Made by a program: the position numbers and the translations under genes. Of a stretch of 64,000 bases of DNA, positions 5,035 through 41,000 are shown in pieces (position 1 is the first letter of the stretch; every line of letters begins with the position of its first letter). Origin of the DNA: Opitutales bacterium. GTDB lineage: Bacteria > Verrucomicrobiota > Verrucomicrobiia > Opitutales > JABSRG01. The notes beneath the pieces are model-generated. The model did no database searches. It was not told the origin of the DNA and worked only from the letters and a program-made list of their open reading frames with translations. The stretch lies in NCBI GenBank assembly GCA_049599475.1, contig JBMYOQ010000016.1, positions 11,128 through 75,127 on the forward strand. Direction: 5' to 3'.

Positions 5035-5062
5035 GATGTTTATTCTTTCGATGGGGTGCTCC

Positions 5063-7284: not shown

Positions 7285-7296
7285 TGGAAAATGTTT

Positions 7297-8153: not shown

Positions 8154-8236
8154 GGGAAACCCGCTGATAGCCGAACTATCAAACGCTTCGGAAGAGCGAG
8201 GACGAACAGCTTCAGAGAGAGTCCCTGCAGCGAAAA

Positions 8237-22910: not shown

Positions 22911-23007
22911 AGCCGAGCGACACTGATTGAGTGTCGCTCGGCTGAAAAGACAAAAACCCAAGAATCCGAGCTATACACTATTTCTCAAAAGCCTTTTCGT
23001 AAACCTG

Positions 23008-23380
23008 GGAGGGACATTGCCCTCAATGGCGCTGCGTTCAGGATGATGTCATCGGTAGCGGCCCTCCGAGCGGCCGAATGCGGCGTATCAGCCGGGCGAA
23101 ATCGCTGTATTCAACCGCTCGGAGATCGGTTGCTACCCCATCTCTTCTCTAAAGGCCGCGCCATTACCTCGCCCTCAATGTCCGCCACGATTGACTCTAT
23201 TGATGCTAAGGACAGCGAACGTAGGCCTGCCGGAGATGGCGAAGCAATGACGCTGCCTTCAGGATAGATTAGGATAAAAATCATGACGAGAAGGTAGGGC
23301 GCGGTCCTCACGCAGCCGCCTCTGCTGCTCGGAATTCGGCTTAAATACGGTGGCTGCCTCGGAGATGTAGCTCTACCTTC
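23008..23380. repeat. Cluster of GTAG/GGAG-type REP palindromes (two REPIN-like doublets)
   Basis: Inverted pairs at 23054-23079/23109-23137 and ~23290-23320/23352-23380; each unit is GGTAG plus a short hairpin. Direct repeat GCCCTCAATG at 23019-23028 and 23171-23180. Confidence 0.75.
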
Positions 23381-23478
23381 AAGCGGCCATCTAATTCTCA
23401 ATACCATCCCTTTGTTAAACCATATTTAGCACTAAGGACAGAGTCCTTCCCGACAATCTCGGAAGACAATTTCAGAGC

Positions 23479-23721
23479 CTATCCTCGGCTAAATGCACCT
23501 GCATCCGGATAACCGTAGCGGTCCATTGGACCATCATAACAGGCCGCATCCAGGACAGACCACAAATGAATCAGCCATCCCAAGAGGAAGACCCACATGA
23601 CGGGTGTGAGGACACACATGACTAAAGCCTTAAACCAGCGACCTTGTACGAGTTGACCCAGACCCGGGATAAAGAAACTGCACACGGCAGAGATTACGTT
23701 TCCAGTTGTTCCATTATTCAT
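23479..23721 (-). CDS. Small membrane protein (TM2-like hypothetical)
   Basis: SFFIPGLGQLVQGR motif typical of small TM2-like proteins; two hydrophobic segments; GGGGAGG RBS upstream. Confidence 0.7.
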   Translation of the reverse strand: MNNGTTGNVISAVCSFFIPGLGQLVQGRWFKALVMCVLTPVMWVFLLGWLIHLWSVLDAACYDGPMDRYGYPDAGAFSRG

Positions 23722-23971
23722 GCCTCCCCTTATTGCGTTTTCGTTGCCAACATTTCCGAAAGATTCGCAAGGATCTGTCTATCAACATCTTATAAAATAA
23801 GATTTTTATACATAAAATCTTCCTGGTATTTTTCACCAAATAAGGCGGTGCAAAAAACCGTAAAAGAATGCCATTTCATACACCTTTCATACAAGTCATT
23901 TGACAGCAGAGAGAGCAGGCTCGTGATTAAGTATGGCCCCACGCTCACCTCCCTATTCTCGCTTCCTCAAA

Positions 23972-26008
23972 ATGCAAAACGCTGACTCCAAACCAGTTAC
24001 ACATTCATGGTCCCTGCCAAAAGAAGTCGCGTCCGCCGCCTCCAGAGGCATCTGGTGCCTATGGGTCTACCAAACCGAGAAGCGCCCCTACCAACTCCAC
24101 GTTGCCGATTCGGAAAAATGGGTTGAACAAGGCCTACCCGACATCGCCGGGCGCAGCCCCGAAGACTCCGCACAGATCCTACTCGCACACCTTCCCGAGA
24201 AAACCCAGTCCGAGATCGTCGATACACTCGAAATGACGGACGAAGGGGAAACCCGCGTATCCAACATTTCACTGCGCATCGAGGCAACAGCCTACGATCT
24301 CAAAATAATCAAGCGCTCAGGCTCAACATACCTCTATTTTCGACGCAACCAACAGACTTCGCCCATCCACCAGAAGTCATGGGACGAGATCGAAGACGCC
24401 TACCATTTCTTTCACGGGCTCTTCAACCAGTCTCCCAACGTAATTTTCTTAGAGGATTGGTCCCGCCTCAAGGAGCGTATCGACACTGTAGCCAAGTCGG
24501 GTGTTACCAATTTTAAATCGTGGGCAAATGGACTGAGCGATCAAGAGATCCTAAAACTCTTTGAACTCGTCGACATCCTCGATGTGTCCCAGACCGCGAC
24601 GGAGATGTATAAAGCCGAAAGCAAACAGACGGTCATCGAGAATCTGGACAAGATCCTCGAGCTGTCAGACCTGCAAAAGCTCCGGAATGAAATCGGTGCA
24701 ATCGCTTCGGGCGATAAACTGTTTAAAGACGATTTCATCTTTAAAGACCTCGAGGGAAACCAAATCCACGGCGATGTTTCGGTATGCGTCGTCGAAGGCT
24801 ACGAAGACACATGGAAGTATGTCATCGCCTCCGTTTCTGAAGTGACAGACCGCATCGAGGGCGCCGAGGAGCTCAAACGCATTGCACGCACCTTCCAAGA
24901 AAGCACCGACCTATTCCGCGGCACCCTCAACCACGTGCAGACACCGATCAGCCTTTCAGACGAAGCAGGGATCATCATTGAGGCCAATCAATCCTACTGC
25001 GATTTCTACGGACAGGTGCGGGATAAAATCGTCGGCACCCAATTTTTGAGCCATGCCGCCCCCCTGCTTACCGAGGCCGATCGCGAGCGCAAAATGGAGC
25101 AATATTCCCAGTTTGTAAGAATCGGGAAATCTGAAGAGTTCGAAGAGACAGTGCTCACTCACAAGGGATGGCGCACCATCGATGTCGTTCGAGGCCTCTA
25201 CACTCGACCCGACAATCAGCGATGGGTCGTCACCAGTTTTTTCGATATTACCCAGCTCAAGTCTGCTGAGGAGCAAAGCCGCAAACTCCTCCAGGATGAA
25301 CGCAAACTTTCTGAGCTGCGCAGCCGATTCATTTCAATGGTATCTCATGAATTTCGGACGCCTCTGACTTCTGCCAAGATGTCCAGCAGCGTTCTGATAA
25401 AATACATGGATCGCCTCTCCGAGGAAATGACCGTGAAGCACAGCGAAATCATCGCCCGTGCGATCCGACGACTCGAGGACATGATCGACGGCGTCTTAGT
25501 GATCAGCGAGGCCGGAGCCGGTAAACTTGCCGCCAAGGCCAAAGAAATTCCACTGGGAGAATACCTGGGCAATCACATAAAAGAGTGGCACACCGCACAC
25601 CCAGACATCGCGTTTCACACCGAGTTTGCGCCAAACTCACAGGACACTATTTTTGCCGACGAACGCCTCCTCTACCTGGCCATCAACAACCTGGTCTCAA
25701 ACGCAGTCAAATACGCCAGCAAGGCCGATCCCGCGGTCCGCATCACCCTCAAGAATACTGAGCAATCAGGCGTGCTCGTCACCATAGCGGACAATGGCAT
25801 TGGCATTCCCCCAGAAGACCAAAACGAAGTATTTCAATCGTACTATCGAGCAAGCAACGTAGGCAAAATCTCCGGCACCGGGCTTGGCCTGGTTGTGGTC
25901 GAGAATTCTCTGAAGGCCCTCGGAGCCAGTATTTCCCTTAAATCGGAAGAAGGTAAAGGTACGACCTTCCTGATCGACTTTCCTATGACTACGAAAGACA
26001 GCGCTTAA
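23972..26008 (+). CDS. Cytoplasmic PAS-domain sensor histidine kinase
   Basis: PAS-like repeats; H-box SHEFRTPL, NLVSNAVKY, DNGIGIP and GTGLGL; no TM helix. Start is 23972 or 23933. Confidence 0.9.
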   Translation: MQNADSKPVTHSWSLPKEVASAASRGIWCLWVYQTEKRPYQLHVADSEKWVEQGLPDIAGRSPEDSAQILLAHLPEKTQSEIVDTLEMTDEGETRVSNISLRIEATAYDLKIIKRSGSTYLYFRRNQQTSPIHQKSWDEIEDAYHFFHGLFNQSPNVIFLEDWSRLKERIDTVAKSGVTNFKSWANGLSDQEILKLFELVDILDVSQTATEMYKAESKQTVIENLDKILELSDLQKLRNEIGAIASGDKLFKDDFIFKDLEGNQIHGDVSVCVVEGYEDTWKYVIASVSEVTDRIEGAEELKRIARTFQESTDLFRGTLNHVQTPISLSDEAGIIIEANQSYCDFYGQVRDKIVGTQFLSHAAPLLTEADRERKMEQYSQFVRIGKSEEFEETVLTHKGWRTIDVVRGLYTRPDNQRWVVTSFFDITQLKSAEEQSRKLLQDERKLSELRSRFISMVSHEFRTPLTSAKMSSSVLIKYMDRLSEEMTVKHSEIIARAIRRLEDMIDGVLVISEAGAGKLAAKAKEIPLGEYLGNHIKEWHTAHPDIAFHTEFAPNSQDTIFADERLLYLAINNLVSNAVKYASKADPAVRITLKNTEQSGVLVTIADNGIGIPPEDQNEVFQSYYRASNVGKISGTGLGLVVVENSLKALGASISLKSEEGKGTTFLIDFPMTTKDSA

Positions 26009-27108
26009 TGGCTCAAGCTCCAGGAAGTTTCACTATACTCGTCATCGAGGACGATCCCGGCATTCGCGAAAATCTCAGCGATGTACTCATTCTCGAGGGG
26101 TACCGCGTGTCCTCAGCAGAGAACGGAATCGACGGATGTGCCCTGGCCCAATCAATCGTGCCCGACCTCATCATCTGCGACGTAATGATGCCTGAGCTCG
26201 ATGGCTACGGCGTACTGCAGAAGTTGCGAGAAAACGAGGAAACAGACGCCATTCCCTTCATTTTTCTATCGGCGAAAACCGAGCGCGCCGACATGCGATC
26301 AGGCCTCGGACTCGGCGCAGATGACTACCTGACGAAGCCCGTAGACATCGACGAGCTCCTCGCATCCGTCCAGCTCCGAATCAACCGAGCTGCCGTTCAG
26401 CGCCGCCAAGCTGAGAAACAACAAGTCGAACAATGGGGTTCCCTCCCACACGAGATCAACACCCCCCTCAACGGGATTATTAGCTCCGCAGAACTCTACC
26501 TGAGCATGATTCGCGCAGGTGAAAATTTTAATAATAACGAGCTCGCCGACGTATTCGAAATCATTCTCGACTCCGGTTACCGCCTGCACCGATTTACTGA
26601 GAAATACATCCGGTATTTCGAGCTCGTGCAACAGACCAAATCGCCCAATACCCGAGTGGAGCCCGAGCCTCTTTCGATCTCACCCTTGATTCAGGAAGCG
26701 ACCCGAGACCTCACCCATCAATTTGGCCGCGAAGAAGACCTCTACCTAGATTTACAGGAAGATGCCGTCGTCGGCCTGCGATTCTGGATCTTCCAATCTA
26801 TCAACAATCTCATCGAGAACGCTTACAAATTCTCTGAACAAGGCACGCAAGTGGCCATCATCGGCAAGGTGGATCGAGATCGCTACTGCATCCGAATCGT
26901 CGATCACGGGCGGGGCATGACTAGCGAGCAAATTTCAGAAATTGGACCATTCAAACAGTTTGAGCGCGACAAATTCGAACAACAGGGCTTTGGTCTCGGT
27001 CTCTTCAATGCGCGAGAAGGTATTTTTCTTTCTGGAGGAACATTTGAGGCGTTCCCGGTGACCCCTCAAGGGCTTCGCATCGAAATCTCCCTACCGCGCG
27101 CAGATTAA
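26008..27108 (+). CDS. Response regulator-histidine kinase hybrid (REC-HisKA-HATPase)
   Basis: ILVIEDD...ICDVMMP...KP REC domain; PHEINTPLNGI, NLIENAYKFS and GFGLGL. Translationally coupled to the upstream kinase (TAATG). Confidence 0.9.
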   Translation: MAQAPGSFTILVIEDDPGIRENLSDVLILEGYRVSSAENGIDGCALAQSIVPDLIICDVMMPELDGYGVLQKLRENEETDAIPFIFLSAKTERADMRSGLGLGADDYLTKPVDIDELLASVQLRINRAAVQRRQAEKQQVEQWGSLPHEINTPLNGIISSAELYLSMIRAGENFNNNELADVFEIILDSGYRLHRFTEKYIRYFELVQQTKSPNTRVEPEPLSISPLIQEATRDLTHQFGREEDLYLDLQEDAVVGLRFWIFQSINNLIENAYKFSEQGTQVAIIGKVDRDRYCIRIVDHGRGMTSEQISEIGPFKQFERDKFEQQGFGLGLFNAREGIFLSGGTFEAFPVTPQGLRIEISLPRAD

Positions 27109-27128
27109 GAACCACACAGTCCCTCTCC

Positions 27129-27734
27129 ATGGAAATTACGCTTGCTGAGCTTCCCCCAGCAAAACGATACGGCATCCTCGCCTCCCTGATTGTCCCACGT
27201 CCAATCGCTCTGATATCGACGATATCGAAGGACGGCGTGCACAACGCAGCACCCTTTTCTTTCTTCAATGTCTTCGGCAGCAAACCTCCAATTGTTGCGG
27301 TAGCTCCAGGCGACAAGGCACCCGGCATTCCCAAAGACACCGCACGCAACATCCGCGATAACGGCGAATTTGTGGTAAACATGGTAGACCCCGCAATCGC
27401 CCAAGGAATGAACCTCTCTGCAGCCAGCCTACCTCCAGAGACGAGCGAATTTGCAAGCGCGGGATTCATCGCAACCACTTCCACCCAAATTCAAGCTCCC
27501 CGCATCGCGGAGGCACCTGTCTCTTTCGAGTGCCGCGAGCACACGACCCTCCACATCGGCTCAAACCGCCTTGTCATCGGGGAAGTCCTCGTGGCGCATG
27601 TTCGCGATGGGATTTTGGATCCAGAGACGTACCGACGAATCCAAGACGGGGACTATTCACCGATCGGACGCATGCATAGCCCCGACTGGTACTGCGAAAC
27701 GAATTCCCTGTTTTCCATGCCTCGGCCAGACTAA
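27129..27734 (+). CDS. Flavin reductase-like FMN-binding protein (DIM6/NTAB family)
   Basis: IVPRPIA, NAAPFSFFN, KDTARNI and EFVVN motifs. Confidence 0.9.
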   Translation: MEITLAELPPAKRYGILASLIVPRPIALISTISKDGVHNAAPFSFFNVFGSKPPIVAVAPGDKAPGIPKDTARNIRDNGEFVVNMVDPAIAQGMNLSAASLPPETSEFASAGFIATTSTQIQAPRIAEAPVSFECREHTTLHIGSNRLVIGEVLVAHVRDGILDPETYRRIQDGDYSPIGRMHSPDWYCETNSLFSMPRPD

Positions 27735-27819
27735 TACTTCAATCAGTAACGCTGTTTTTACGACAATTTCGCACCCGAACACTTGCACCAGGGGGCCATA
27801 TTTCGCAACTTTCTCTTAA

Positions 27820-29319
27820 ATGTATCTCTTGCCTCGAGTTCTCATCGGTTTAACAGTCGTCATCTCCAGCCTTTTCGCCCGCGAGGTAGATGAACTCAAG
27901 GAGAACACAGATCCCGAGACCCCGGAGCAGGTAGTTGAAATCAACGAGCCGGATATCATCGAGGGCCCTCTCGACACCTACATCATCCCCATTGATCGGC
28001 AGATCGACAACGCTACTGAGGCGATCGTTCTCCGCGCACTCGAAGCGGCTGAGCTCAATGAAATCGACCTGATTGTCCTCGACATGGACACTCCCGGCGG
28101 CCGCCTGGACAGCACCCTCAACATCATGGAAGCCCTCGATAATTTCGAAGGCACCACTATCACTTTCGTCCGTTCAGACGCCCTTTCCGCAGGAGCCTAC
28201 ATTGCAGCATCCACCGATGAAATCTATATGGCGCCCAAAAGCATCATCGGTGCGGCCGCGGTTATCGCCGGAGGCGGCGAAGACATTCCTGAGACGGCCA
28301 AACAAAAGATCGACAGTGTGCTCAAGGCGAAAGTACGCACACTCGACCGCGATTACCGCTACCGCGCAGATGCCATTCGTGCGATGATGGATAGCGAATT
28401 CGAATTTAAAATTGGCAACAAGCTCATCAAAGAAAAGGGCGAGCTGCTGAGCCTGACCGACGAGGAAGCCTACGAGAAATACGGCAACCCTCCTGAATCG
28501 ATGCTATCCCTTGGCACTTACGAAGAAGTAGACGCATTACTCGAATCACGATTCGGCCCTGAAGGCACGATCGACCGCGAATTCGTGCTCACATGGTCTG
28601 AGGAATTGGCCTTTGTCTTAAACAGTATCACACCCGTGGTCCTTTCAATTGGCTTTCTCCTGATCTTCGTGGAATTCAAGACCCCCGGCTTCGGACTTTT
28701 CGGAACGCTAGGCATCTCCATATTAATCTTCGTCTTCATAAGCCAGTTCGTAGCAGGCTTCGCGGGCCACGAGCCCCTCATCCTATTCATCATAGGAATA
28801 GCCTTAATCCTCGTTGAGGTAATCCTAGTCCCCGGAACGTTTGTATCCGGCATTCTAGGATTCACCCTAATGGCGGGCTCACTCGTCTGGGTGCTCATCG
28901 GAGAATTGCCTTCACAGGACTTCCAGTGGAATGCCGAACTCTTCGAAGACCCTGTTTCCGATATCCTCTTAGGCTTGTTGATAGCGATCACCACATTTTT
29001 AGTGCTCCTGCGCTTCCTGCCTCAAAGCTGGTTCTGGAACCGTATCGTTTTGGCCAGTTCGGTAGCCTCCGGACCCACTCCCCAAACCGCCAAAGAGGTC
29101 GGCGAAGTAATCGGAAAAGTAAAGGAGCGCCCCGTAATCGGGACACAGGGTATAGCCGCCACCGATATGTTTCCCTCGGGAAGCGTGGAAATTGACGGTA
29201 AACGCTTTGAGGCTCAAGCAGCCCGCGGATCCATAAAACGTGGAGAAGACATAGTTGTAAGCGGTTATGCTAGTTATAGTTTGATCGTTAAGAGTTTATC
29301 AACAGAGGACGCATCATGA
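27820..29319 (+). CDS. Long NfeD (ClpP-class serine protease domain + TM + OB-fold), YqeZ-like
   Basis: LDMDTPGG, ALSAGAYIA, EFKTPGFG, TM bundle and C-terminal G-x-A-x-T-D...PSG OB-fold. Confidence 0.9.
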   Translation: MYLLPRVLIGLTVVISSLFAREVDELKENTDPETPEQVVEINEPDIIEGPLDTYIIPIDRQIDNATEAIVLRALEAAELNEIDLIVLDMDTPGGRLDSTLNIMEALDNFEGTTITFVRSDALSAGAYIAASTDEIYMAPKSIIGAAAVIAGGGEDIPETAKQKIDSVLKAKVRTLDRDYRYRADAIRAMMDSEFEFKIGNKLIKEKGELLSLTDEEAYEKYGNPPESMLSLGTYEEVDALLESRFGPEGTIDREFVLTWSEELAFVLNSITPVVLSIGFLLIFVEFKTPGFGLFGTLGISILIFVFISQFVAGFAGHEPLILFIIGIALILVEVILVPGTFVSGILGFTLMAGSLVWVLIGELPSQDFQWNAELFEDPVSDILLGLLIAITTFLVLLRFLPQSWFWNRIVLASSVASGPTPQTAKEVGEVIGKVKERPVIGTQGIAATDMFPSGSVEIDGKRFEAQAARGSIKRGEDIVVSGYASYSLIVKSLSTEDAS

Positions 29320-29783
29320 CGCTCATCCTTATTTTATTGGTCTTAGGTTTTATTCTCGTAGGCGCTGAAGTGCTACTGCCAGGAGGTATTCTCGGCCTAA
29401 TAGCGCTCATCGTGTTCGTAATCGCAACCGTCGTCGCAACGAATACCTACGGAGGCACAGGAGGCTTGATAACGTTCGCAGCCTCAGCGCTCGGCTCAGC
29501 CATCACCTTTTTTAGCATTTTTAAATGGGTCGCGATCTCTCCCAGCGGGGGAGGCCTCCGCCTAGATGCAGCCATCAACGGGAATTCCTCGAGCCAATCC
29601 CTGGATCCGGCTCTCGTGGGACAAACCGGTGTTACCGCGACTAAAATGGCACCCAACGGCCTCGTCTCCGTGGGCGACCAAGATCTCCAGGCACACTCAG
29701 AGGACGGATTCCTAGATATTGGCACCGCAGTTACTATCCACGGCATACGCCACGGAAATATCGTCGTCCGCAAAACAGTTTAA
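29316..29783 (+). CDS. Short NfeD-family membrane protein
   Basis: [13 protein letters not shown] region and a C-terminal OB-fold ([14 protein letters not shown]); ATGA overlap with the upstream gene. Confidence 0.85.
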
Positions 29784-29814
29784 TTTCAACCACTCAATAA
29801 ACCCGATTCGTAAA

Positions 29815-30855
29815 ATGATCTCTGATCCCATTCTAGCCGTTAATACCACCCTCGTCATCGGGGTCGTGATTATCATCGTAGTTATCGTTCTTTCGATGGT
29901 GCTATGGTCCTTCATTGGCGCATTCATCAAAGCAGCCTTAGCCGGAGCTCCGGTGGGTCTCCACACGCTCGTCGCAATGCGTCTTCGCGGTGTGCCACAC
30001 TCGCTCATCGTCGACGCTCGCATCACCGCGGTGAAAGCAGGCATCACTTTAGGCACTGACGACATCGAAGCGCACTACCTCGCAGAAGGTAATGTCATCC
30101 AGACCGTCCAAGCCCTGATCGCTGCTGAGAAAGCGAACATCACACTCGATTGGGCCCACGCCTGCGCGATCGACCTCGCCACACGCGGCACCGACAAAAG
30201 CGTTATTGAAGCGGTTAAGACATCTATTAACCCCAAGGTCATTGACTGTCCCGGAGGCGTCGGCGGACGCACATCCATCGATGGTGTCTCAAAAGACGGT
30301 ATCCAAGTAAAAGTCCGTGCCCGTGTAACAGTCCGCTCAAACCTCGACAAATACGTCGGCTCCGCTCTCGAAGAAACAATCATCGCGCGTGTTGGTGAGG
30401 GTATCGTCACTACCATCGGTTCTGCCGAGACCTACAAAGATGTATTGGAAAGCCCCGACAACATTTCCCGCAACGTGCTCGATCGCGGTCTGGACGTGGG
30501 CACCGCATTCGAAATCCTTTCCATCGACATTGCAGATGTAGACGTCGGTGAAAACATCGGTGCTCAGCTCCAGGAATCGCAGGCAGAAGCCAACAAAAAC
30601 ATGGCTCAAGCCCAGGCCGAAATTCGCCGTGCAGCCGCGGTAGCCCTCGAGCAAGAGATGAAGGCGAAGGTCGAAGAGATGCGCGCAAAGCTCGTCGAAG
30701 CCGAGGCCAACGTACCACAGGCGGTCGCCGAAGCCCTCCGCACTGGAAACATTGGCGTGATGGATTTCTACCGCATGGACAACATCAAGTCCGATACCGA
30801 GATGCGTTCTAGCATTTCCAAGGACGATGATGAAGAAGACGAAACTACACGCTAA
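29815..30855 (+). CDS. floA: Flotillin-like protein FloA (YqfA/UPF0365)
   Basis: [54 protein letters not shown] and GVMDFY motifs. Confidence 0.93.
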
Positions 30856-30874
30856 TCTTCACCTGATCCATTAA

Positions 30875-31519
30875 ATGGATAGTTTTCAGGACTTTCTCCC
30901 TATTCTGGTGATTATCTTGGCCTCCCTGGGGCCAAAGATACTGGAGTTTTTCCAGAACCAGAGCAGCGAGGAAGAAGACCGCAACCAGCCGGCAGAGACC
31001 GAACAGCAACGGCGTATCAAAGAAGAGATACGCCGTCGCATTGAGGCTGCGAGGCAAGGCCAGCAACAGACTCAACAGCAGCAGCAACCTACACAGCAGG
31101 AGCGCCCGACCCAACAAACGTCGGGACCCCCTCCGCTGCAAACACAGCCGCCGCAGCGTCGCCAAGCCGCGCCACCGCCTCTTACGCCGACAGCCGACGG
31201 GGGCCGCACCTCTTATCAAAGGGCGCAATCTCCCGAGCCTACTGCTCGTTTCGATCCCAATAAGGCACAACGTGAGCTGGAAGCCGCGCAAGAGCGCTTG
31301 AAGTCGACACACCAAAGGCTAGAAGCCGCAAAGCGCGAGGCCAAGCAACGCGCACGCCGTGCAGAGAAAACGGCCGCAGCGCGGAATCAAGCAGCTCCCG
31401 AGCTCGTGGCTCTCTCAGCGCAAGGCCTTCGCGGCTCCCTACGCGACAAGAAGCAAATACGCCGTGCTATCCTGCTATCAGAAGTGCTCAGTAAGCCGAT
31501 TGCCATGCGGCAGTCCTGA
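30875..31519 (+). CDS. YqfB-like protein (N-terminal TM, Gln/Pro-rich linker, coiled coil)
   Basis: Follows floA; C-terminal RRAILLSEVLSKP motif resembles the partner genes of floA operons. Confidence 0.65.
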   Translation: MDSFQDFLPILVIILASLGPKILEFFQNQSSEEEDRNQPAETEQQRRIKEEIRRRIEAARQGQQQTQQQQQPTQQERPTQQTSGPPPLQTQPPQRRQAAPPPLTPTADGGRTSYQRAQSPEPTARFDPNKAQRELEAAQERLKSTHQRLEAAKREAKQRARRAEKTAAARNQAAPELVALSAQGLRGSLRDKKQIRRAILLSEVLSKPIAMRQS

Positions 31520-31558
31520 GCCGTTTAACCTTAATCTCCCGATACAAAAGCTCTCACC

Positions 31559-32173
31559 ATGTCACTTATAGTACTCGTCATCCTCGTCGGTGTCGCCGGT
31601 TTTGTCATATTTTCTTTGATGCAAAGCAAGGGCGGCCCGATCGCCCCTCCACCCGAAACGAGAGCGATGACGATCGAAAACGTCGATGTCGGCGGCACGA
31701 TCATGTTGAGTGGCGTTGGTCCCGACCTCGAGGACTTCGATCTTATTGTCACGGCCAAGCATATCTACGAAGAGGACGGCTACCTCTGGCACGAACTCGA
31801 AGCAGAAAAGGGGGCTAAGAAAGTCTGGATCACCGTAGAGAATGACGATGAGCTCGAGCTTTCGATCACCGTCAGCAAACACAAGCTGCGCGATGCCGGC
31901 CTGACTCCCGAGCAGCTTGACCAATTCAAAAAGGACGACGATGGTAGCTTCTCTCTGGATGATGTCACGTATCACTTGGAAGACTACGGCAAGGCAATCT
32001 TTTACCGTGGAGGCAATCGCGCCCAGGGTGAAAAATTCAAATACTGGGAGTTCGAGAGCAAAGACGAGCGCCATTATGCATCCGTGGAAATGTGGGGAAG
32101 CGGCGAATACGAGCTTCATATCTCGGAGCCCCTTCGCAGTGCCCAAATCCAAATCTTTACCCTCAAAGGCTAG
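31559..32173 (+). CDS. DUF4178-like (YjfK-like) membrane-anchored protein
   Basis: N-terminal TM; YEEDGYLWHE...WITVE, YWEF and SVEMW pattern; Psp/polyamine gene context. Confidence 0.75.
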   Translation: MSLIVLVILVGVAGFVIFSLMQSKGGPIAPPPETRAMTIENVDVGGTIMLSGVGPDLEDFDLIVTAKHIYEEDGYLWHELEAEKGAKKVWITVENDDELELSITVSKHKLRDAGLTPEQLDQFKKDDDGSFSLDDVTYHLEDYGKAIFYRGGNRAQGEKFKYWEFESKDERHYASVEMWGSGEYELHISEPLRSAQIQIFTLKG

Positions 32174-32176
32174 ACG

Positions 32177-33070
32177 ATGACCGAAGGCCTCATGTATTGG
32201 GTGGGCGAACCCTTAATTTACATCGTGCTAGGCGTCATAATAATGACTCTCGCCAAACTTGTAAACGACTGGACCACGCCCTACTGCGTCGATACTCAGC
32301 TCGCAAAGGAAGACAATCCCGCATTGGCCGTCAGCTTTGTCGGCTACATGCTCTCTGTAGTTGCTATTTTTATAGGGGCCTTAAGCGGGCCGTCACTGGG
32401 GCTTGTCTATGACTTAGGCCTCACCACGCTTTACAGTGTATTCGGAATCATCCTCCTCAACTTGTCACGAATCATCAATGACAAGCTGATTCTCAGCCAG
32501 TTTTCCAACGTCAAAGAGATAATTGAAGACCGCAACATTGGAACGGGCGCAGTCCAGTTCGGCTCCTACTTGGCAGCGGGACTCATTATCGCTGGATCCA
32601 TCCAGGGTAATCTGGATCCCGTAGGAGATGTCACAAGTTCCTGGCTCAACACTTGGTATGGAGGACTGGTCACAGCATCTGTATTTTTTGCACTGGGACA
32701 AATTGTTCTTATTTTCTTTTCGAAGATATACGACTGGATCACACCTTTCAGCGTGCACGACGAAATCGAGAAAGATAACGTGGCGGCCGGTATCGCATTC
32801 GGGGGTGCGCTCTTGGCCAACGGCATCGTGCTGATGCAAGCGTCTAGCGGCACTTTTATTGATTGGTCGACCAATCTCGGAAAATTCGCAGCAGAGGCCG
32901 CAGCTCTTTTAGTCCTCCTTCCCTTTGTCCGCTTTGTGTATGACAAATGTGTATACGCAAAGATCGATCTAAACGACGAAATCGTGAAAGACCGCAATAT
33001 CGGCGCTGGCTTCCTAGAAGCTGGAGGCATGATCGGATTCGCCCTCATTTTCATCGCAGCCCTCGGCTAG
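32177..33070 (+). CDS. DUF350 (YjfL-like) membrane protein with duplicated domains
   Basis: Repeated TP-x4-E/Q-x3-DN-x-A/G motifs (EDNPALA, DRNIGTG, KDNVAAG, DRNIGAG); about 8 TM helices. Confidence 0.85.
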   Translation: MTEGLMYWVGEPLIYIVLGVIIMTLAKLVNDWTTPYCVDTQLAKEDNPALAVSFVGYMLSVVAIFIGALSGPSLGLVYDLGLTTLYSVFGIILLNLSRIINDKLILSQFSNVKEIIEDRNIGTGAVQFGSYLAAGLIIAGSIQGNLDPVGDVTSSWLNTWYGGLVTASVFFALGQIVLIFFSKIYDWITPFSVHDEIEKDNVAAGIAFGGALLANGIVLMQASSGTFIDWSTNLGKFAAEAAALLVLLPFVRFVYDKCVYAKIDLNDEIVKDRNIGAGFLEAGGMIGFALIFIAALG

Positions 33071-33082
33071 GAGATTTTACCC

Positions 33083-33676
33083 ATGGCATTTCAATCTCCC
33101 AAAAACAATATCGGCTTCCAAGTAACAGTAATCTTGGGGGTTTTCTCTCTGATCTGTCTAGCGACTGCAGCCGTCTTCAACATGGACAGCGGTAAGGCAA
33201 TCTCCATGACGGTCCCCGGCAAAGGAGAGTTTTCAGAAAGCTTTAAGTCTGAAAAGAAGAACCAAGTCTATTTTGTTCAACTCAGAGGAAGCACCGGGAA
33301 CCTCCCTTGGAATTCTGGATGGTCTGAGGCCGAAGTAGAAATAGCAGATGCGAACAATACCCCCTTATTTGCCTTTGGTGGAGATTTTTGGCGCGAAGCA
33401 GGTCGAGACGACGACGGTCCCTGGCAGGAACATAAGAGCCTCAATAAGATGAAAATCACCCTGCGCGACCCAGGCACTTACAATTTAAATGTAGATTTCA
33501 ATTCAAGCGTCGCCAACCCTGGCAAACTCACGGTGACCTTGCACCCAAAGCGCGCCAGCAGCCTACCGTTCTTCGTGCTCGGAATCATTTCATTCATCGC
33601 CGCAGTCGCGATCGGATATTTCTCGTCTAAAACAATCGTTCACCAAGCAGTACGAAATTTTGATTATGAATTTTAA
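33083..33676 (+). CDS. Hypothetical membrane protein (TM - beta-rich domain - TM)
   Basis: Two terminal hydrophobic helices; acidic GRDDDGPWQE motif; in-operon spacing. Confidence 0.75.
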   Translation: MAFQSPKNNIGFQVTVILGVFSLICLATAAVFNMDSGKAISMTVPGKGEFSESFKSEKKNQVYFVQLRGSTGNLPWNSGWSEAEVEIADANNTPLFAFGGDFWREAGRDDDGPWQEHKSLNKMKITLRDPGTYNLNVDFNSSVANPGKLTVTLHPKRASSLPFFVLGIISFIAAVAIGYFSSKTIVHQAVRNFDYEF

Positions 33677-33929
33677 ACTACTTGCCCTCATCGGCATTCT
33701 CGGCGCCGTCTACGCAACCGCATACGCCGCAAGCCTACGCGGCTATGGCTACGCCGGGCACAAAACGTATAAACGCAACGACGGCAGCTACTACTATGGT
33801 GGAGGCCCCAGCTTCTTCTACTGGGGCGGATCACGATACTACGACTCCGGCACCAGTGGAGGCAGTTTACGCGGCGGATCTCCGGGGGGGCCGAGTGTCC
33901 GTGGCGGGGGTCCCAGCTCCGGCAAATAA
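33666..33929 (+). CDS. Small secreted/membrane Gly-Tyr-Ser-rich protein ending ...VRGGGPSSGK
   Basis: Signal/TM N-terminus and low-complexity tail; overlaps the upstream stop and ends 10 bp before speE. Confidence 0.75.
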   Translation: MNFKLLALIGILGAVYATAYAASLRGYGYAGHKTYKRNDGSYYYGGGPSFFYWGGSRYYDSGTSGGSLRGGSPGGPSVRGGGPSSGK

Positions 33930-33939
33930 GCTATTTTGA

Positions 33940-35499
33940 ATGGCAGACACCGCGAATACACCCAACAATGCAGAGCGCCAGCAAACCCTAGCGCTCACGT
34001 TTTCTGTATTCGTCGCCGGCTTATGCTCCATTGTCTACGAGCTGCTCATTGCCACAGTCTCTTCCTATTTTCTCGGGAATAGTGTCACCAAATTTTCCTT
34101 AACCATCGGCATTTACATGGCCGCGATGGGCCTGGGAGCATGGATTTCGCGCCACATTCAGCGAGACGAATACAGCTTCTTTGTAAAAATGGAAATCGCG
34201 CTCGGCTTCCTCGGCGGCCTGAGCGTACCTATCTTATTTGCCACCTACAGCTTCATTCCCGATTCCTATATCTGGGTAATGGTCTTACTCACGGCGGGAA
34301 TTGGCGTTTTGATCGGCTTCGAGATACCCATGCTCACACGCCTGCTTGAGCGCTTTTACACGCTCAAGATGAATATATCCCATGTATTGAGCTTGGACTA
34401 CTTCGGGGCTCTGATTGCCACGCTGCTCTTTCCCTTTGTCCTCCTGCCATGGATCGGCCCATTCCGCAGCTCTCTGCTTTTTGGCATAGTGAACATGAGT
34501 ATCGGATTCCTGGTACTTTGGAAATTTCCCAATGCCTTCAATCCCGGGGCGCGCAAGTACTACGCCTTCCTCAGCAGCTCGGTACTTACCCTCTTAGTGG
34601 GCCTACTCATTGCATCCCAGGCTCTGATCAGCAACTGGTCCGACAGCTTGTATGATGACACCGTAATCTTGGAAAAGCAGACGCCCTACCAGCGTATCGT
34701 CGTGACACGCTACGGGGAAGACGTCCGACTTTTCCTCGATGGAAACCTACAATTCTCATCCCGCGACGAGTTTCGCTACCACGAGGCGATCGCCCATCCT
34801 GCTTTGGCCCAAACTCGGAACCGCCAAGACGTCCTGATCCTAGGAGGCGGCGATGGCCTGCTAGCGCGCGAAGTTCTCAAATGGCCGGATGTTGAACAGA
34901 TCATCATGGTGGACCTCGATCCGGCGGTAACTGATCTCGCCCGAGCCCACCCCCTCTTCACCCAACTGAACGATGATGCCCTGAAAGACCCACGTATAGA
35001 AGTCATCAACGGGGACGCCTTCCAATTTCTGGATACAGCCGAAGGACGAGAATTCCAGACAATCATCGCTGACCTACCGGATCCCAACAACATTTCCCTA
35101 GCGCGCCTCTACAGCCGCGAATTCTATCGACTTGTCCGCTCTCGATTGGCGCCTGGAGGCGTCTTCGTCACTCAGGCCACGAGCCCCTATTTTGCCACCG
35201 AAACTTTCTGGCAGATCCAAGAAACGGTCTCATCCGCCGGCTTCGGAGACACACTTCCCTACCATGCAGACGTCCCCAGCTTCGGCGATTGGGGCTTCAT
35301 TATGGCTGCCAACCACTCCCTGGAGACCGAACTCCGCGGCCTGCCCAATGAATTACGTTTTTTGAGCGAAGAAGGCTTCCCGGTGCTCACCCATTTTAGT
35401 AAAGATCTTAGCAGAGATAATTTTGCTGTCCTCCCAAACACTCTAGACAATCCCACCCTTCTGGCCCGCTACCTTAAAGCAGTGCGAGATTGGCGATAA
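33940..35499 (+). CDS. speE: Membrane-anchored polyamine aminopropyltransferase (spermidine synthase family)
   Basis: About 7 N-terminal TM helices (GLCSIVYELL...); catalytic domain LFLDGNLQFS...DEFRYHE, LILGGGDG, IADLPDP and VPSFGDWGF. Confidence 0.92.
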   Translation: MADTANTPNNAERQQTLALTFSVFVAGLCSIVYELLIATVSSYFLGNSVTKFSLTIGIYMAAMGLGAWISRHIQRDEYSFFVKMEIALGFLGGLSVPILFATYSFIPDSYIWVMVLLTAGIGVLIGFEIPMLTRLLERFYTLKMNISHVLSLDYFGALIATLLFPFVLLPWIGPFRSSLLFGIVNMSIGFLVLWKFPNAFNPGARKYYAFLSSSVLTLLVGLLIASQALISNWSDSLYDDTVILEKQTPYQRIVVTRYGEDVRLFLDGNLQFSSRDEFRYHEAIAHPALAQTRNRQDVLILGGGDGLLAREVLKWPDVEQIIMVDLDPAVTDLARAHPLFTQLNDDALKDPRIEVINGDAFQFLDTAEGREFQTIIADLPDPNNISLARLYSREFYRLVRSRLAPGGVFVTQATSPYFATETFWQIQETVSSAGFGDTLPYHADVPSFGDWGFIMAANHSLETELRGLPNELRFLSEEGFPVLTHFSKDLSRDNFAVLPNTLDNPTLLARYLKAVRDWR

Positions 35500-35539
35500 A
35501 CCGTTTCTCAATTAAAAGACTCAAATCAAATCGAACCCC

Positions 35540-35956
35540 ATGGAAAGTATACAAGTCACAACCGAACGCTCCGACGGTCTCGTCGAGTTCTTACAGCTCA
35601 ACGACTTCATAGTCACCGAACTCGAGGGCAACATCCTGCAAGTTGTCCGCGGTGAAGAGCTACCTGTTTATCTGTATCAAAACAACAATTCACTCCACTT
35701 CGAAGTGGACTTGGGCAACATCTCTGGAATCGCCAGCAAAGAACTCTATGAAGCCCTCCTCGACGCCAACACTACCGTTCAGCCCGTGTGCTTCGCGCTC
35801 AGCTCGAGCAACCCCGAGGACCCACGCCTGATCATTACGGAAAGCCAATTCACGCAAGATCTCTGCGACCAAGAGATTCTTGGAATCTTCGACGCCCTCG
35901 AACTCGCCGCTGATACCGCGGAAACGATCCTGTCACCCTTTCTGCAAAACGCCTAA
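35540..35956 (+). CDS. YjfI/CesT-like (T3SS-chaperone fold) acidic protein
   Basis: 138 aa, acidic; ELYEALLDAN...FAL pattern; directly upstream of the pspA homologue, like yjfI-yjfJ. Confidence 0.6.
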   Translation: MESIQVTTERSDGLVEFLQLNDFIVTELEGNILQVVRGEELPVYLYQNNNSLHFEVDLGNISGIASKELYEALLDANTTVQPVCFALSSSNPEDPRLIITESQFTQDLCDQEILGIFDALELAADTAETILSPFLQNA

Positions 35957-35968
35957 TTCCCCACTGCT

Positions 35969-36670
35969 ATGAGTATATTTAGCCGCATATTTAATATTGG
36001 TAAGGCCAACGTAAACAAGGCCCTCGACTCGATGGAAAAGCCCGAGGTCATGCTCGATCAGGCGATTCGCAATAAGGAAAAGCAGATCATGGAAGCGAAA
36101 AAAGCGATCCAGGGCTGCATTGCCACCGAGCACCAGACCAAGAAACTGCTCGAACAGGAAAAAGCCGAACAACTCGCCTGGGAGCAACGCGCCCAAGAAG
36201 CCCTCAAGAGTGGCCGCGAAGATCTCGCAGCGAAGGCCCTCCAGCGCGCCATGGAGTACGAGCAAAAGGCAACCGACCTTCAGGCCAATTGGGAAAGCCA
36301 GCGTGCCGCCACCTCAGAGCTCAAGCGCGACATCCTAAAAATGGACGACGAGCTTAAGGACTTCCGCCGAAATAAGGACTTTATCATCGCTCAATCCAAG
36401 GCTGCCGACGTCAAGAAAAGCATCTATGAGGCTAAGGCTAAGATCAGCAAGGATCGCTCAGCCGACGACCTCATGGAGCGCATGAAACGAAAAGCGGAGC
36501 GCTCAGGTGCCGAGGCTGATGCAGCCAAGGAGCTCGCAGAAACTTTCGACGGTAAAGACTCCCTTGAGAAAGAATTCGAGTCTATGGAAAGCTCCGGCGT
36601 CTCTCCGTCTGTCGCCGAAAAATTGGCGGCGATGAAGGCTGGCCTCAACAAGGGTCAACCCGGGGCATAA
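35969..36670 (+). CDS. PspA/IM30 (bacterial ESCRT-III) family protein
   Basis: MSIFSRIFNIGKANVNKALDSMEKPEVMLDQAIR, WEQRAQEALKSGREDLA and long coiled coils. Confidence 0.93.
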   Translation: MSIFSRIFNIGKANVNKALDSMEKPEVMLDQAIRNKEKQIMEAKKAIQGCIATEHQTKKLLEQEKAEQLAWEQRAQEALKSGREDLAAKALQRAMEYEQKATDLQANWESQRAATSELKRDILKMDDELKDFRRNKDFIIAQSKAADVKKSIYEAKAKISKDRSADDLMERMKRKAERSGAEADAAKELAETFDGKDSLEKEFESMESSGVSPSVAEKLAAMKAGLNKGQPGA

Positions 36671-36678
36671 CCGGACTC

Positions 36679-37080
36679 ATGGGAATGCCAATACCAGCTC
36701 CTTTCAATGGGCCCGAAGCCGAGAAATCACACTCGGCTTCGGGCACCCATGTCTTAGCGGAGCTGAATGGCTGTCCTGAACACCTGCTCAATTGTCCTCA
36801 AACACTGGATACTGAGCTGGTCTCAGCAGCCAAAGGGGCAGGCGCGACCGTTGTAAGCTCGCACTTTCACCACTTCAGTCCCCACGGAGTGAGCGGAGTC
36901 GTGGTGATCGCCGAGAGCCACATCACCCTACACACGTGGCCAGAAATAGGCTACGCCGCCCTCGACGTTTTTACCTGCGGCCATCCAGATCTCCCACTCC
37001 GTATCGCGCAGAAGATTGAAAAGATCCTAGGTGCCCAGACCTCAAAGATTCGAGAAATCAGCCGAGGTCCCAATGAGTGA
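36679..37080 (+). CDS. speD: S-adenosylmethionine decarboxylase proenzyme (class 1B)
   Basis: GTHVLAEL, FSPHGVSGVVVIAE-SHITLHTWPE (pyruvoyl self-cleavage site) and DVFTCG. Confidence 0.93.
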   Translation: MGMPIPAPFNGPEAEKSHSASGTHVLAELNGCPEHLLNCPQTLDTELVSAAKGAGATVVSSHFHHFSPHGVSGVVVIAESHITLHTWPEIGYAALDVFTCGHPDLPLRIAQKIEKILGAQTSKIREISRGPNE

Positions 37081-37152
37081 GGATACATACAGACGCATGG
37101 ACAAAACGGTATTTTCCGCTCGCAAACGCGAATGAAGAACGCCGATCCCAAA

Positions 37153-37965
37153 TTACTGTGGAGTATCTGAAATCCGAAAACGAATCGGAAACATAAAACG
37201 CGCATTCACGGGACGCCCGTTCTTCTTCGGGACTTCAAAAACACAGCTCTCTGCGCAGCGAATTGCAGGCATTATAAAGGCCAATTCTGCGGCTTCTACA
37301 ACCCGCTCGACCCATACCGATCCGTCTGTCTGGATTAGGACAAGCAGCTTTACCAAGCCTTCCACTCGTTGCCTGCGCAAGTCCATCGGATACTCTGGAG
37401 GATTCCCCGAGAGGCGCTTGGGAACGGCATCCAACTCATTCAGGCTAAACGAATTCTGACTCGAGTTAGAAGAGGTCGACCCGCCAGTCTGGTTTTTCAT
37501 AGTGTCCATAAAGGACTTCAGCCGCTGGGTAAGCTCCTCCTTGCTCAGACCGTCCAACTCCCCACGAAGGGAATCTGCCGAAGGCTTCGCATCATTCGCC
37601 GGACCATCTAATTGAAAATCTACCGTTAAGACTGTTCGCGCTTTGACCGGCTCTCCGTTTCTCAGCGGAGGCTCGTAGACCAGGGCTCCCGCGTATATCC
37701 GAGCCGAGGCCTCGAACAGTTTGTTTGAGGATTCTATGATCCGGGTTATCTCAGTGTTGCCCTCTTCATTAATGAGAATAGCCATGCGCACACTCCCGAC
37801 AACACCCTCTGCTTTTAAACCCTCCGGATAATAGAGGTCTGGCTCATGCACCAGCGCCGGCCTGCCGTCCAACTCCGTTAAAAAGTAGAAACGATCATCG
37901 GCATGGAGACAGGTCACACAACATAGCAGTCCAACCATCCATTTGAGGGCTCTTTTCAAACACAT
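37153..37965 (-). CDS. TonB-family protein with two TonB C-terminal domains
   Basis: Signal peptide; YYPEGL...GVVG-x-V...PPLRNGEPV, and a second PEYPMDL...EGLV...VPKKNGRPV. Confidence 0.82.
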   Translation of the reverse strand: MCLKRALKWMVGLLCCVTCLHADDRFYFLTELDGRPALVHEPDLYYPEGLKAEGVVGSVRMAILINEEGNTEITRIIESSNKLFEASARIYAGALVYEPPLRNGEPVKARTVLTVDFQLDGPANDAKPSADSLRGELDGLSKEELTQRLKSFMDTMKNQTGGSTSSNSSQNSFSLNELDAVPKRLSGNPPEYPMDLRRQRVEGLVKLLVLIQTDGSVWVERVVEAAELAFIMPAIRCAESCVFEVPKKNGRPVNARFMFPIRFRISDTPQ

Positions 37966-38097
37966 AATGCTCAGATCAAGAATGCTAATTCTAAAAATGC
38001 TAGCCTATAGATTCAAAAAGATACAATCGGGTCAACAGCTCCCCAGCATCAAAAAGAGCTGGCATTCGGCATCTTCGCTGCTCAAAAAACATGCATA

Positions 38098-41000
38098 ATG
38101 GGTATCCGCTTTATAGTTATAATCCTATGTTTGTTAATCAGCTTTCACTCGGCGAGCGCTGATACCGAAGCGAATAGTTCATTTTCTGAGGCCTTCAAAG
38201 AAGCCCTGAAAATACCCGAATCCTATCGGGTTGTCGAACCGAGCTGGGGACTCATCGTCGCAGACAAAGATGGAAGAATATGGCGGAGCAATGCCCGTGT
38301 TTCTAGGACAGGGAAGTTCAATGGTGAAGATGAAGCCCTGTTCTTCAGCCAGATGCGGGGTCGCAACTTCCAGCTCTCCATCCAGCCAGTCTTCCTGGAA
38401 AATACCGAAATCCCGCTCTATACTATCGCGGAAGCCTGGTATTCCCTACACGGCATTTCCTTAGGAGAATCCGACATCCTGAATATGGAACCCTTGGAGC
38501 AACCGGCTGGAGAGCCCTGGTTGCAGATAGATACCATCGTTCACCAGGAAAATCATTCGGACACCATTTCTACTCTCATTGCGCGCTTGGACTCGGTGGT
38601 CATCATCGCAAATGCATGGAAATCCCATGACGAGCCCTTCGTCAACCTACCTCGTTTCACAGAAATATTTCAACTGCATCCCGAGCTTTCCCTCTCAAAT
38701 GTGAGTGGCCTCCCACGGAGCGCGAACAGCACCGAACAAGCAACGGTCATCAATCACATTGGCCTGAGCCTGTTCAACCAGGGCAATCTCATTTGGGCAG
38801 CAGATCTATTCAAAAGAGCACATCGCTTAGACCCATTCTACGAAGATTACTTCCGCAACTCGGTATTGGCCCTACAGAAATCTGGGCAACATGCCGCAGT
38901 GGAAACCCTGATCAAGGAAGCGCCTATCGGCATGCAAAAATCTCCGGCTATTGTGCAAATGCGTGTATCCAGCCTCATTGCGCTAGGCGAGAGCGCACGG
39001 GCAGCCGAGATTCTCAAGAGAGAAATTGATCGAGGAGTCAAAAGTGAATCCGTGATCATCCAATATATGAACTCCCTTTTCGCTCTAGAGGAATTCGCCG
39101 AAGTCCGCGATGTAGGTGTCGAAGCCCTCGAACAAGGTCTAAATTCTTCGACAATCATGAGCAACCTGGGATGGGCGTATCTCAGGCTTGAGGACTACGA
39201 AAATGCCCGAGAAACCTTCCAAGGCATGGGCCGTCTTTTGAACGCCAACCTCGAAGCTTCCTATGGATGGATGCAACTCCTCCTGGAAGAGGAGAAATAT
39301 GAAGAATGCACAGCCTTTGGTATTAATATTTTTGAGACGAAGGGTGATCTTTCAGCTCTATCCTATGCAATACGAGGCCTTATCGAAACAGGTGATCATG
39401 ATACGGCGGAAGAATATATTACCGTCGGCCTCAAACGCAATCCTGCCAACCCGGATCTACTCCAATGGGATGAGTATGTGAAAAGCCTCACCGGCGAGGG
39501 TGTATCTCGAGAAGCGTCTACCCCAATCGAAGCCCTCGTGATCAATCAGGATCTACAGACTCAGATCGACACATGGAAATCCCAGGAGCCCGCAGTATCC
39601 GAAGAATTATTACAAAACATAGAAGACAAGGGCGCAATGTATAATGAAGTCACCACGATTACAGAGTGGATATCCGGCGACTCCTATACCACAACCACGC
39701 GTCTCGTCGCCACGATCAAATCGAAATCCACGGTGGACGCCTTCAAGCAGTTCGTGTTCAATTTCAACCCGTTCTCAGAGTCGATCTACATCAACAAAAT
39801 TGAAGTACGCGACGAGACTGGAGCCATTCTCGCAACTGAAAACCGCGACAAGTTTGTGGTTCGCCACGAAGACTCTTCAGCCTACGCCACAGAGGATCGC
39901 ATACTCATTGTTCCGATTCCAAGCATTCGCAAAGGGCGCACTCTAGAGCTCGTCTACACCCGACAAAGACGTGGCACCGAAGTGAAATTTCCGTTCACAC
40001 AGAATTTCTTCACAGGAGTCTATCCCGTCATGGAGTCTCATTACATTTTGCATGACAAAGAAGGGGCCCTGCACGCTAAAGCCTCTGGGATCGAAAAACA
40101 CGTTTCTCTAGAAAACGGAGCTCTGTGGTCAGTATTCAATGCAAAAGGATTACCCAGCGAAGACAACCTACCGACACCCGTCCAAATCGAGCCTGTCTTG
40201 AGAATTTCCAGCCAAGAGAAATCCTGGACTGAGCTAGCCTCAGATTACAAAGAACGTATCGACCATACACTTACTGAGTCTTCTGAGACGATGGACGAAT
40301 GGATCAAGGAACACATCGAAAAGCATTCGAACCACGAAGATTCACTAGCTTCCGCGCTCACCGCAATTCGAGAAAACTTCAACTACCAAGGCTACCTATT
40401 TGGCGAGCGCGCCCAAGTGCCCAACTTACCTAGCGATATCATCAACAACGGCTATGGGGACTGCAAAGATCTCAGCCTTCTCCTTCATAAGACTTTAGAA
40501 TTCCTCGAGATTCCGAGCTTCCTCACTCTAGTAAACACGAAAGGAGCCATCGCAACCGACATCCCATCTATCGATCAATTTGACCATATGATCGTCTACA
40601 GCCCAGGCCTCGGAGAATCCGGGCGCTTCCTCGACGCTACCGAAGCCTTCGCAACCGGTCTCACCGATCCGACTCATCTACAAAACGTCGAGGCGTTTGT
40701 CTTGGATTGGGACAATCCTCGCTTCGAGAAAATCAATCATTCTAAACCCACGGAAACCCCCATCTATTCCGAGCGCGAGGTAGTCCTTGAGACTGATGGC
40801 GCAATCAATGTCACAGAATCCATCACAATGCGTGGCCGTGCGGCCGAGAATTTTAAACGCTGGCTATCCACGATGACTCCAACTGAGCGCCGAGATGCGA
40901 TTCAAAGGTGGATGAATCACAACAAGCTCACGCTTCAAGTAGACTCAATATCCACCGAAAATGTAGAATCTCTCTACACTCCTCTATTTCTCGAAATTAC

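Follow-up and report, generated by a model that had tools for sequence, protein, structure and literature searches.

The stretch of DNA analysed here, 64,000 nucleotides of contig JBMYOQ010000016.1 from an Opitutales bacterium of the phylum Verrucomicrobiota (assembly GCA_049599475.1) and hereafter called the window, carries twelve genes (g1 to g12) at 27820-37080, in which a flotillin operon runs head to tail into an operon for a PspA-family protein and a membrane-bound aminopropyltransferase. The question raised by this locus is whether these genes specify one machine or two. We refer to g1-g4 (27820-31519), which encode two NfeD proteins, flotillin-like FloA and a small membrane protein, as module B, and to g5-g12 (31559-37080), which include SpeE, PspA and SpeD homologues, as module M. 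A preliminary description of the locus had read the whole run as one envelope-stress machine. As a conserved architecture, this proposal did not withstand comparison with other genomes, the adjacency being absent from the sister species G001, from another relative, G003, and from all 80 loci compared in other phyla. Rather, B and M are probably two separately conserved envelope modules, which lie head to tail and are likely co-transcribed in this organism. The join itself appears to be a lineage-specific arrangement of parts already published, namely both halves and the linkage of PspA to SPFH and NfeD proteins, and module M is a trimmed copy of a published PspA-linked membrane aminopropyltransferase operon.

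The distribution of the two halves carries this reading. Long NfeD, short NfeD and FloA occur together in all five relatives from the family, with a detectable homologue of g4 in three, whereas module M is present in only one of the five; therefore, neither module depends on the other. In G003, the closest relative with module M (SpeE 55% identical), floA is found on another contig than M, and M is collinear without FloA in G003, G281, G512 and G322. A search of a phylum sample with PRK03612 gave scores above the cut-off in 11 of 401 genomes; among 16 fetched loci, NfeD-FloA lies nearby in a single one (L031, genome G023). Within the order, an enzyme with SpeE fused to seven transmembrane helices (7TM-SpeE) was found in 18 of 401 genomes, with FloA at 20 kb or less in four of the 18, namely the genome of the window and three of the genus g23, and thus in two of 13 genera. 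At 80 7TM-SpeE loci of other phyla, tblastn (E <= 1e-3) found neither FloA (0/80) nor NfeD (0/80); the same loci hold SpeD (35, within 10 kb), a g7 homologue in the equivalent position (15), DUF350 (9), DUF4178 (6) and PspA (4). The neighbourhood search for nfeD-floA beside SpeE that the preliminary description had proposed thus returns no conservation.

Comparison with G001, a same-genus relative with an 86% complete genome, places the break between the modules. A histidine kinase, a hybrid response regulator-histidine kinase, a flavin reductase, both NfeD genes, FloA and g4 are collinear there at 55-91% amino-acid identity, and synteny ends exactly after g4, to be followed by 418 bp and fur-sufC-sufB-sufD. 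Neither SpeE nor DUF350 has a match in that 86% complete genome, and no remnant of M is present in its g4-fur spacer or TonB flank, where local alignment scores equal those of shuffled sequence. In the window, the fur-sufC-sufB-sufD-FeS assembly operon lies at 3158-7755 (- strand), inverted relative to G001, and approximately 92 bp upstream of fur are conserved. A strong GC-rich hairpin followed by a T run occupies 8049-8180 (+ reading); the hairpin block (8049-8156) is 85% identical in G001, where it stands between a convergent gene and TonB. On this second G001 contig the block abuts TonB and a TPR/DUF3857 gene with no M between them, and in the window it is separated from TonB by the inversion. 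Taken together, the two genomes differ by an inversion of approximately 23-29 kb, with one end at the g4/g5 spacer or the end of M, and by the presence of M. No repeats above chance are shared between the three breakpoint regions, and the GC content at third codon positions, 0.52-0.66 for M genes versus 0.57-0.63 for B genes, bears no sign of recent transfer. Genome G718 (locus L042) has a partial M, lacking CesT, PspA and SpeD, followed by a K+ channel gene, a transposase fragment and fur-suf, a gene order which fits an ancestral arrangement of B, M and fur-suf. The fragment, of a DDE transposase (L042 12568-12993, - strand), lies between the truncated M and fur-suf, and hints that the site is rearrangement-prone.

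Within this organism the run is compact. The list of open reading frames (ORFs) agrees with the preliminary description that all twelve genes share one orientation (+ strand), and that neighbouring genes overlap or are no more than 40 bp apart. Genes g1 and g2 overlap by 4 bp, and g2 is separated from g3 by 31 bp if the latter starts at its first ATG (29815), its frame being open from a TTG at 29719. There follow gaps of 19 bp (g3/g4), 39 bp (g4/g5), 3 bp (g5/g6) and 12 bp (g6/g7), an overlap of 11 bp (g7/g8), and gaps of 10 bp (g8/g9), 40 bp (g9/g10), 12 bp (g10/g11) and 8 bp (g11/g12). The 39-bp spacer between B and M (31520-31558, + strand), where synteny with G001 stops, contains no terminator-like fold, and the predicted RNA fold of the junction is no better than that of shuffled sequences (z +0.97). 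Promoter-like and terminator-like matches occur at chance levels (10 versus 9.8 +/- 2.6, and 17 versus 15.6 +/- 3.7, respectively), and no sigma-54-type promoter pattern is present in 23000-38500. Given the short spacer, a fold that does not exceed shuffles and scans at chance, co-transcription of B and M is plausible here; as in the preliminary description, no internal terminator was detectable. The run stops at 37080, since the TonB_C gene that comes after it (37153-37965) is transcribed convergently.

A single, integrated machine for envelope stress, with the membrane aminopropyltransferase positioned by microdomains of FloA/NfeD and by scaffolds of PspA, is in our judgement unlikely, yet several observations speak for it, and these are weighed here with others that count against our reading. 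Gaps of at most 40 bp without a detected terminator leave room for real coupling, as does a second NfeD-FloA/SpeE juxtaposition in the genus g23. In all three g23 genomes FloA lies near SpeE (5.2 kb in G023, 5.2 kb in G463 and 17.6 kb in G494), and their SpeE falls in a well-supported subfamily other than that of the window (FastTree tree, from which L042 and the duplicate L140 were left out), so that the juxtaposition is apparently independent. However, it is not operonic, as an opposite-strand QueG gene and an opposite-strand PNP/MTAP-like gene intervene. Occurrence in two of 13 genera weakly suggests an excess over chance, for which our rough, post hoc estimate is about 1-2% per genus; equally, only these two genera of the order show it. 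A Band_7 gene adjoining M in G281, from which it runs divergently, likewise leaves room for coupling, and its congener G512 has no such gene. If the ancestral order was B, M and fur-suf, with M deleted in G001, then the join would be older than the genus, and the G001 genome is only 86% complete. Finally, the orientation of SpeE set out below was predicted from the positive-inside rule and a structural model, and an outward-facing catalytic domain would need export of decarboxylated S-adenosylmethionine (dcSAM). Against integration stand the missing adjacency in G001, G003 and other phyla, the 17.6 kb that can separate the g23 genes, and the retention of FloA by all five family relatives when only one has M. 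We therefore retain the reading of two modules, juxtaposed in this lineage.

The first gene of module B, g1 (27820-29319, + strand), encodes a long NfeD protein of the NfeD1b type, the counterpart of Bacillus subtilis YqeZ, with a ClpP-like N-terminal domain, a membrane domain and a C-terminal NfeD OB domain. Matches to NfeD1b_N (126 bits) and NfeD_membrane (66 bits) exceed their Pfam cut-offs, and the C-terminal NfeD domain, at 25 bits, falls slightly below its cut-off of 29.1; overall, g1 belongs with the NfeD1b proteins, and it is 77% identical and syntenic in G001. A short NfeD protein with a hydrophobic N-terminus (segments 3-21 and 51-69) and an NfeD C-terminal domain (Pfam NfeD, 39.7 bits) is encoded by g2 (29316-29783, +), and relatives keep such a gene between long NfeD and FloA. 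The product of g3 (29719-30855, +) is flotillin-like FloA, with full-length scores well over both curated cut-offs (PF12127, 473 bits, cut-off 34; NF010186, 478 bits, cut-off 393). The last gene, g4 (30875-31519, +), encodes a single-pass membrane protein (hydrophobic segment 7-25), Gln/Pro-rich in its middle part and basic and coiled at its C-terminus. It has no match in the Pfam and NCBIfam sets searched, and the name YqfB-like derives from an Atlas feature match only (0.90, 189/256 features, to a cluster with 77% PF27722 YqfB). Its position is that of YqfB in the B. subtilis operon, and homologues lie 3' of FloA in G001 (55% identity), G003 and G006. The histidine kinase (with a PAS domain), hybrid response regulator-histidine kinase and flavin reductase genes 5' of g1 are co-oriented with it (23933-27734, gaps of 0-85 bp); the trio is kept upstream of the flotillin genes in G001 and not in G003, and comprises possible candidate regulators of module B.

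Module M is led by three membrane proteins; across the run hydrophobic segments occur in nine of the twelve products, being absent from g10, g11 and g12 only. Gene g5 (31559-32173, +) encodes a DUF4178 protein (YjfK-like; PF13785, 66 bits) with an N-terminal anchor at residues 3-21, and g6 (32177-33070, +) a polytopic tandem DUF350 protein (YjfL-like; PF03994 in two stretches, 194 bits) with seven hydrophobic 19-mers. The product of g7 (33083-33676, +) has two transmembrane helices (14-32 and 160-178) flanking a beta-rich domain, predicted to be periplasmic; profile searches gave no family match, and its structural matches in the Atlas (TM-score 0.72-0.76) are to clusters carrying DUF4178.

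At the 3' end of M, g10 (35540-35956, +) encodes a small cytoplasmic CesT/Tir-like protein, the positional counterpart of YjfI. Its own CesT match falls below the cut-off (E 0.0017), and Pfam gives no DUF2170/YjfI match. Homologues at 52-60% identity in L026, L039, L141 and L038 pass CesT or CesT_Tir_1, and the counterpart in L057 is a DUF2170 protein. Gene g11 (35969-36670, +) encodes a PspA/IM30 paralogue of the YjfJ type (PF04012, 137.6 bits). As it scores below both equivalogs of the Escherichia coli type (TIGR02977, 79 versus 243 bits; PRK10698, 49 versus 336 bits), we treat it as a family member and not as a PspA equivalog. The genome has a second PspA gene on contig C2, and all five family relatives also have PspA outside M. 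The last gene, g12 (36679-37080, +), encodes a class 1b pyruvoyl S-adenosylmethionine decarboxylase (AdoMetDC; SpeD; TIGR03330, 131 bits versus a cut-off of 75.65) and is the only AdoMet_dc gene in the genome. The gene identities given in the preliminary description were thus mostly borne out by hidden Markov models (HMMs), the exceptions being g4, which has no family match, and g10, which is weakly CesT-like and not a recognizable DUF2170/YjfI protein.

Module M is present in the window in a compact form of eight genes, without the RCK K+ channel and AAA ATPase that go with it in G003, G281, G512 and G093, its closest relatives. Relatives may carry an RCK-type K+ channel gene 3' of SpeE, an AAA + AAA_lid_6 ATPase gene 3' of SpeD, or both, as found at L026 (5149-6627), L039 (262-1623 and 3310-4410), L141 (11294-12394 and 14087-15481) and L041 (13501-14586 and 16131-17501). 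Gene order also varies: in G322 (L038, 13320-16835) CesT_Tir_1 and PspA stand 5' of DUF4178 and not 3' of SpeE, with genes for a JAB protease and for a ThiS-ThiF-rhodanese fusion beside them.

The central enzyme of M, encoded by g9 (33940-35499, +), is a seven-helix membrane domain fused to a SpeE-like polyamine aminopropyltransferase (NF002956/PRK03612, 611 bits versus a cut-off of 472), and the genome has no other Spermine_synth domain. It scores below the canonical spermidine synthase equivalogs (TIGR00417, 150 versus 249.55 bits; PRK00811, 185 versus 260 bits). In its AlphaFold2 model (mean predicted local distance difference test score 89), seven helices precede residue 225, ahead of the catalytic domain, and the best matches in the Protein Data Bank span residues 234-472 only, the solved structures being of the catalytic domain alone. 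A GGGDG stretch, D378 and D381 within a DxPDP motif, and D276, E277, Y280, H281 and E282, all of them motifs of canonical spermidine synthases, are invariant in an alignment of 17 sequences. In the membrane domain of the same sequences, the acidic residues E34, E128 and D153 are also invariant. Counts of lysine and arginine per loop, averaged over 17 sequences, alternate along the protein (2.7, 0.4, 2.9, 0.0, 3.4, 0.2 and 2.6), from which the N-terminus is predicted to lie inside and the catalytic domain to face the periplasm.

Side observations on this enzyme family come from elsewhere in the order. Both 7TM-SpeE subfamilies are encoded in one genome, G449 (contig C3, 4378127-4379644 and 4058855-4059898). 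In G023, a PNP_UDP_1 gene, similar to methylthioadenosine (MTA) phosphorylase or nucleosidase, adjoins membrane SpeE (L031, 6425-7207) and would fit salvage of MTA, the by-product of aminopropyl transfer; the same SpeE cluster also has genes for an amine oxidase and an Rce1-like protease.

A simpler account holds that SpeD and membrane SpeE constitute an ordinary putrescine-to-spermidine pathway, and that their neighbours are bystanders. That the genome has a single SpeE and a single SpeD, that the catalytic motifs are intact, and that g9 scores above the cut-off of the NCBIfam equivalog 'polyamine aminopropyltransferase', are all as this account would have it. However, adjacent genes for carboxy(nor)spermidine dehydrogenase (CASDH) and carboxy(nor)spermidine decarboxylase (CASDC; nspC, 498.6 bits versus a cut-off of 409) lie on another contig of the same genome (C97, 11539-13436), and are likely the main route of the organism to spermidine or norspermidine. 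As this pair lies elsewhere in the genome, M is not needed for spermidine, and ordinary spermidine synthesis is an unlikely purpose for SpeD and SpeE, in keeping with the preliminary description. The fusion to seven helices, the predicted outward orientation of the catalytic domain, and linkage with DUF350, DUF4178 and PspA that is conserved across phyla also speak against a bystander role for the neighbours. Further, Li et al. (2019) reportedly found that fusions of this kind fail to complement an E. coli speE mutant and that such species have no spermidine, their AdoMetDCs reportedly being active. With these points combined, we consider the ordinary pathway highly improbable.

If not putrescine, then the acceptor may be encoded in M itself. 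Immediately upstream of SpeE, g8 (33666-33929, +) encodes an 87-residue micro-protein with an N-terminal signal or anchor helix, a Gly/Tyr/Ser-rich tail and the C-terminus GGGPxxGK. An alternative frame at 33682-33939 is equally open and was rejected, the protein being read in 33666-33929. No Pfam family matches g8, and a word-based search yielded only four relatives; the family was recovered with an HMM built from neighbouring ORFs. Of the 96 fetched loci (L026-L121), 18 carry a small ORF ending in Gly-Lys immediately 5' of SpeE. The loci derive from Verrucomicrobiota, Chloroflexota, Thermodesulfobacteriota, Melainabacteria, Abditibacteriota, Pseudomonadota and Bacillota, and from two metagenome-assembled genomes labelled 'Bacteroidetes' and 'delta proteobacterium'. 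Their products have a hydrophobic helix at the N-terminus and a tail whose last residues are GGG[PIM]xxGK; G26, G28, R69, G80, G82, G86 and K87 do not vary across the 16 aligned sequences. Among the other loci, the place of g8 upstream of SpeE is mostly taken by a gene for a single-domain DUF350 protein. A lipobox-like motif, LAGCS, occurs in a long homologue of the g8 type at L118.

These features suggest how module M might operate. SpeD would make dcSAM in the cytoplasm; dcSAM is predicted to be carried outward either by the seven-helix domain of SpeE, in which acidic residues are invariant, or by the DUF350 protein; and the catalytic domain of SpeE, if periplasmic as predicted, would aminopropylate an exported acceptor. 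To judge from its sequence conservation and from its gene lying just upstream of SpeE, the invariant C-terminal lysine of g8 would be the best candidate for that acceptor. The CesT-like protein and PspA would act at the inner face of the membrane. A bolder extension, which we offer as a speculation with rather long odds against it, is that flotillin/NfeD genes were recruited at least twice independently beside PspA-linked membrane aminopropyltransferase systems of two SpeE subfamilies, and that in this organism FloA rafts organize an outward-facing enzyme which aminopropylates the terminal lysine of g8. If true, this would add a novel type of protein modification outside the cytoplasm, with a tie to membrane repair. 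Module M is widespread and published, and still has no known product, so natural contexts that hint at its partners are useful; at the same time, its lineage-specific flotillin context warns against reading the join as a conserved machine. With its compact M, its separate spermidine route, and a micro-protein ending in Gly-Lys whose gene immediately precedes that of the predicted outward-facing enzyme, this genome permits a direct test by mass spectrometry of what the enzyme modifies.

Set beside known systems, each half of the locus has a close counterpart, and the literature parallels drawn in the preliminary description, to the yqeZ-yqfA-yqfB operon and to PspA clusters of the yjfIJKL type, hold. 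Its statement that the joined architecture was uncharacterized is upheld in part: a literature search brought up no account in which a FloA-type operon sits immediately next to an M operon, but the right half was published by Ravi et al. (2024; mSystems, PMC11237479). In B. subtilis, yqeZ-yqfA(floA)-yqfB is a sigma-W operon (PMC3498285). Module B resembles it in the order of NfeD-type protease, FloA and small membrane protein, and differs from it in the extra short NfeD gene between long NfeD and FloA, in g4, which is only tentatively YqfB-like, and in the histidine kinase, hybrid response regulator-histidine kinase and flavin reductase genes upstream. Both yqeZ-yqfAB and pspA-ydjGHI are common to the sigma-W regulon, and this shared control counts in favour of an integrated machine.

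YqiJ and YuaF are NfeD-family proteins. In Ravi et al. (2024; PMC11237479), a first group of operons joins CesT-PspA to flotillin and YqiJ/YuaF; Popp et al. (2022; PMC9239133) describe band-7/FloT and NfeD beside PspA in Acidobacteriota (11/19); and YdjI reportedly links PspA to the membrane in B. subtilis (PMC8581546). These known links between PspA and SPFH proteins likewise lend weight to integration. Like the operons of the first group and of Popp et al., the window combines a PspA dyad, an SPFH/flotillin protein and an NfeD-family protein in one neighbourhood. Unlike in those operons, its flotillin is of the FloA type (PF12127) and not a transmembrane, band-7 and flotillin protein, six genes separate flotillin from PspA, and there is no AAA+ or beta-propeller gene.

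Module M itself resembles the E. coli yjfIJKLMC cluster in grouping a YjfJ-like PspA with YjfK-like DUF4178 and YjfL-like DUF350 proteins. It departs from that cluster in having SpeD and 7TM-SpeE instead of the ATP-grasp protein YjfC, and in the lack of a DUF2170 match for g10; in agreement with the preliminary description, no ATP-grasp family match was found among 17 ORFs scanned (23933-41442). Ravi et al. keep yjf-type and SpeE-type operons as separate groups (PMC11237479). Their 'second major group' of CesT/Tir-PspA operons, exemplified by Shewanella oneidensis, is described as having a fusion of seven transmembrane helices to a spermine/spermidine synthase, an eight-helix YjfL/DUF350 protein, a Ctha_1186-domain lipoprotein and DUF4178; Li et al. 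(2019; Biochem J 476:2579) are cited there for linkage to AdoMetDC and for 'aminopropylation of other substrates' (PMC11237479). Module M has the CesT/Tir-PspA dyad, the 7TM-synthase fusion, DUF350 and DUF4178 of that group, with g7 and g8 as candidates for its lipoprotein; as in the clusters of Li et al. (2019), a class 1b SpeD gene stands with those for the fusion and for DUF350. It likewise strings the CesT-like gene and PspA, 7TM-SpeE, DUF350, DUF4178 and SpeD together in one orientation, and also encodes a small exported protein. From the closest copies of M, finally, the window differs in having no RCK K+ channel or AAA ATPase, and in the flotillin operon that precedes it.

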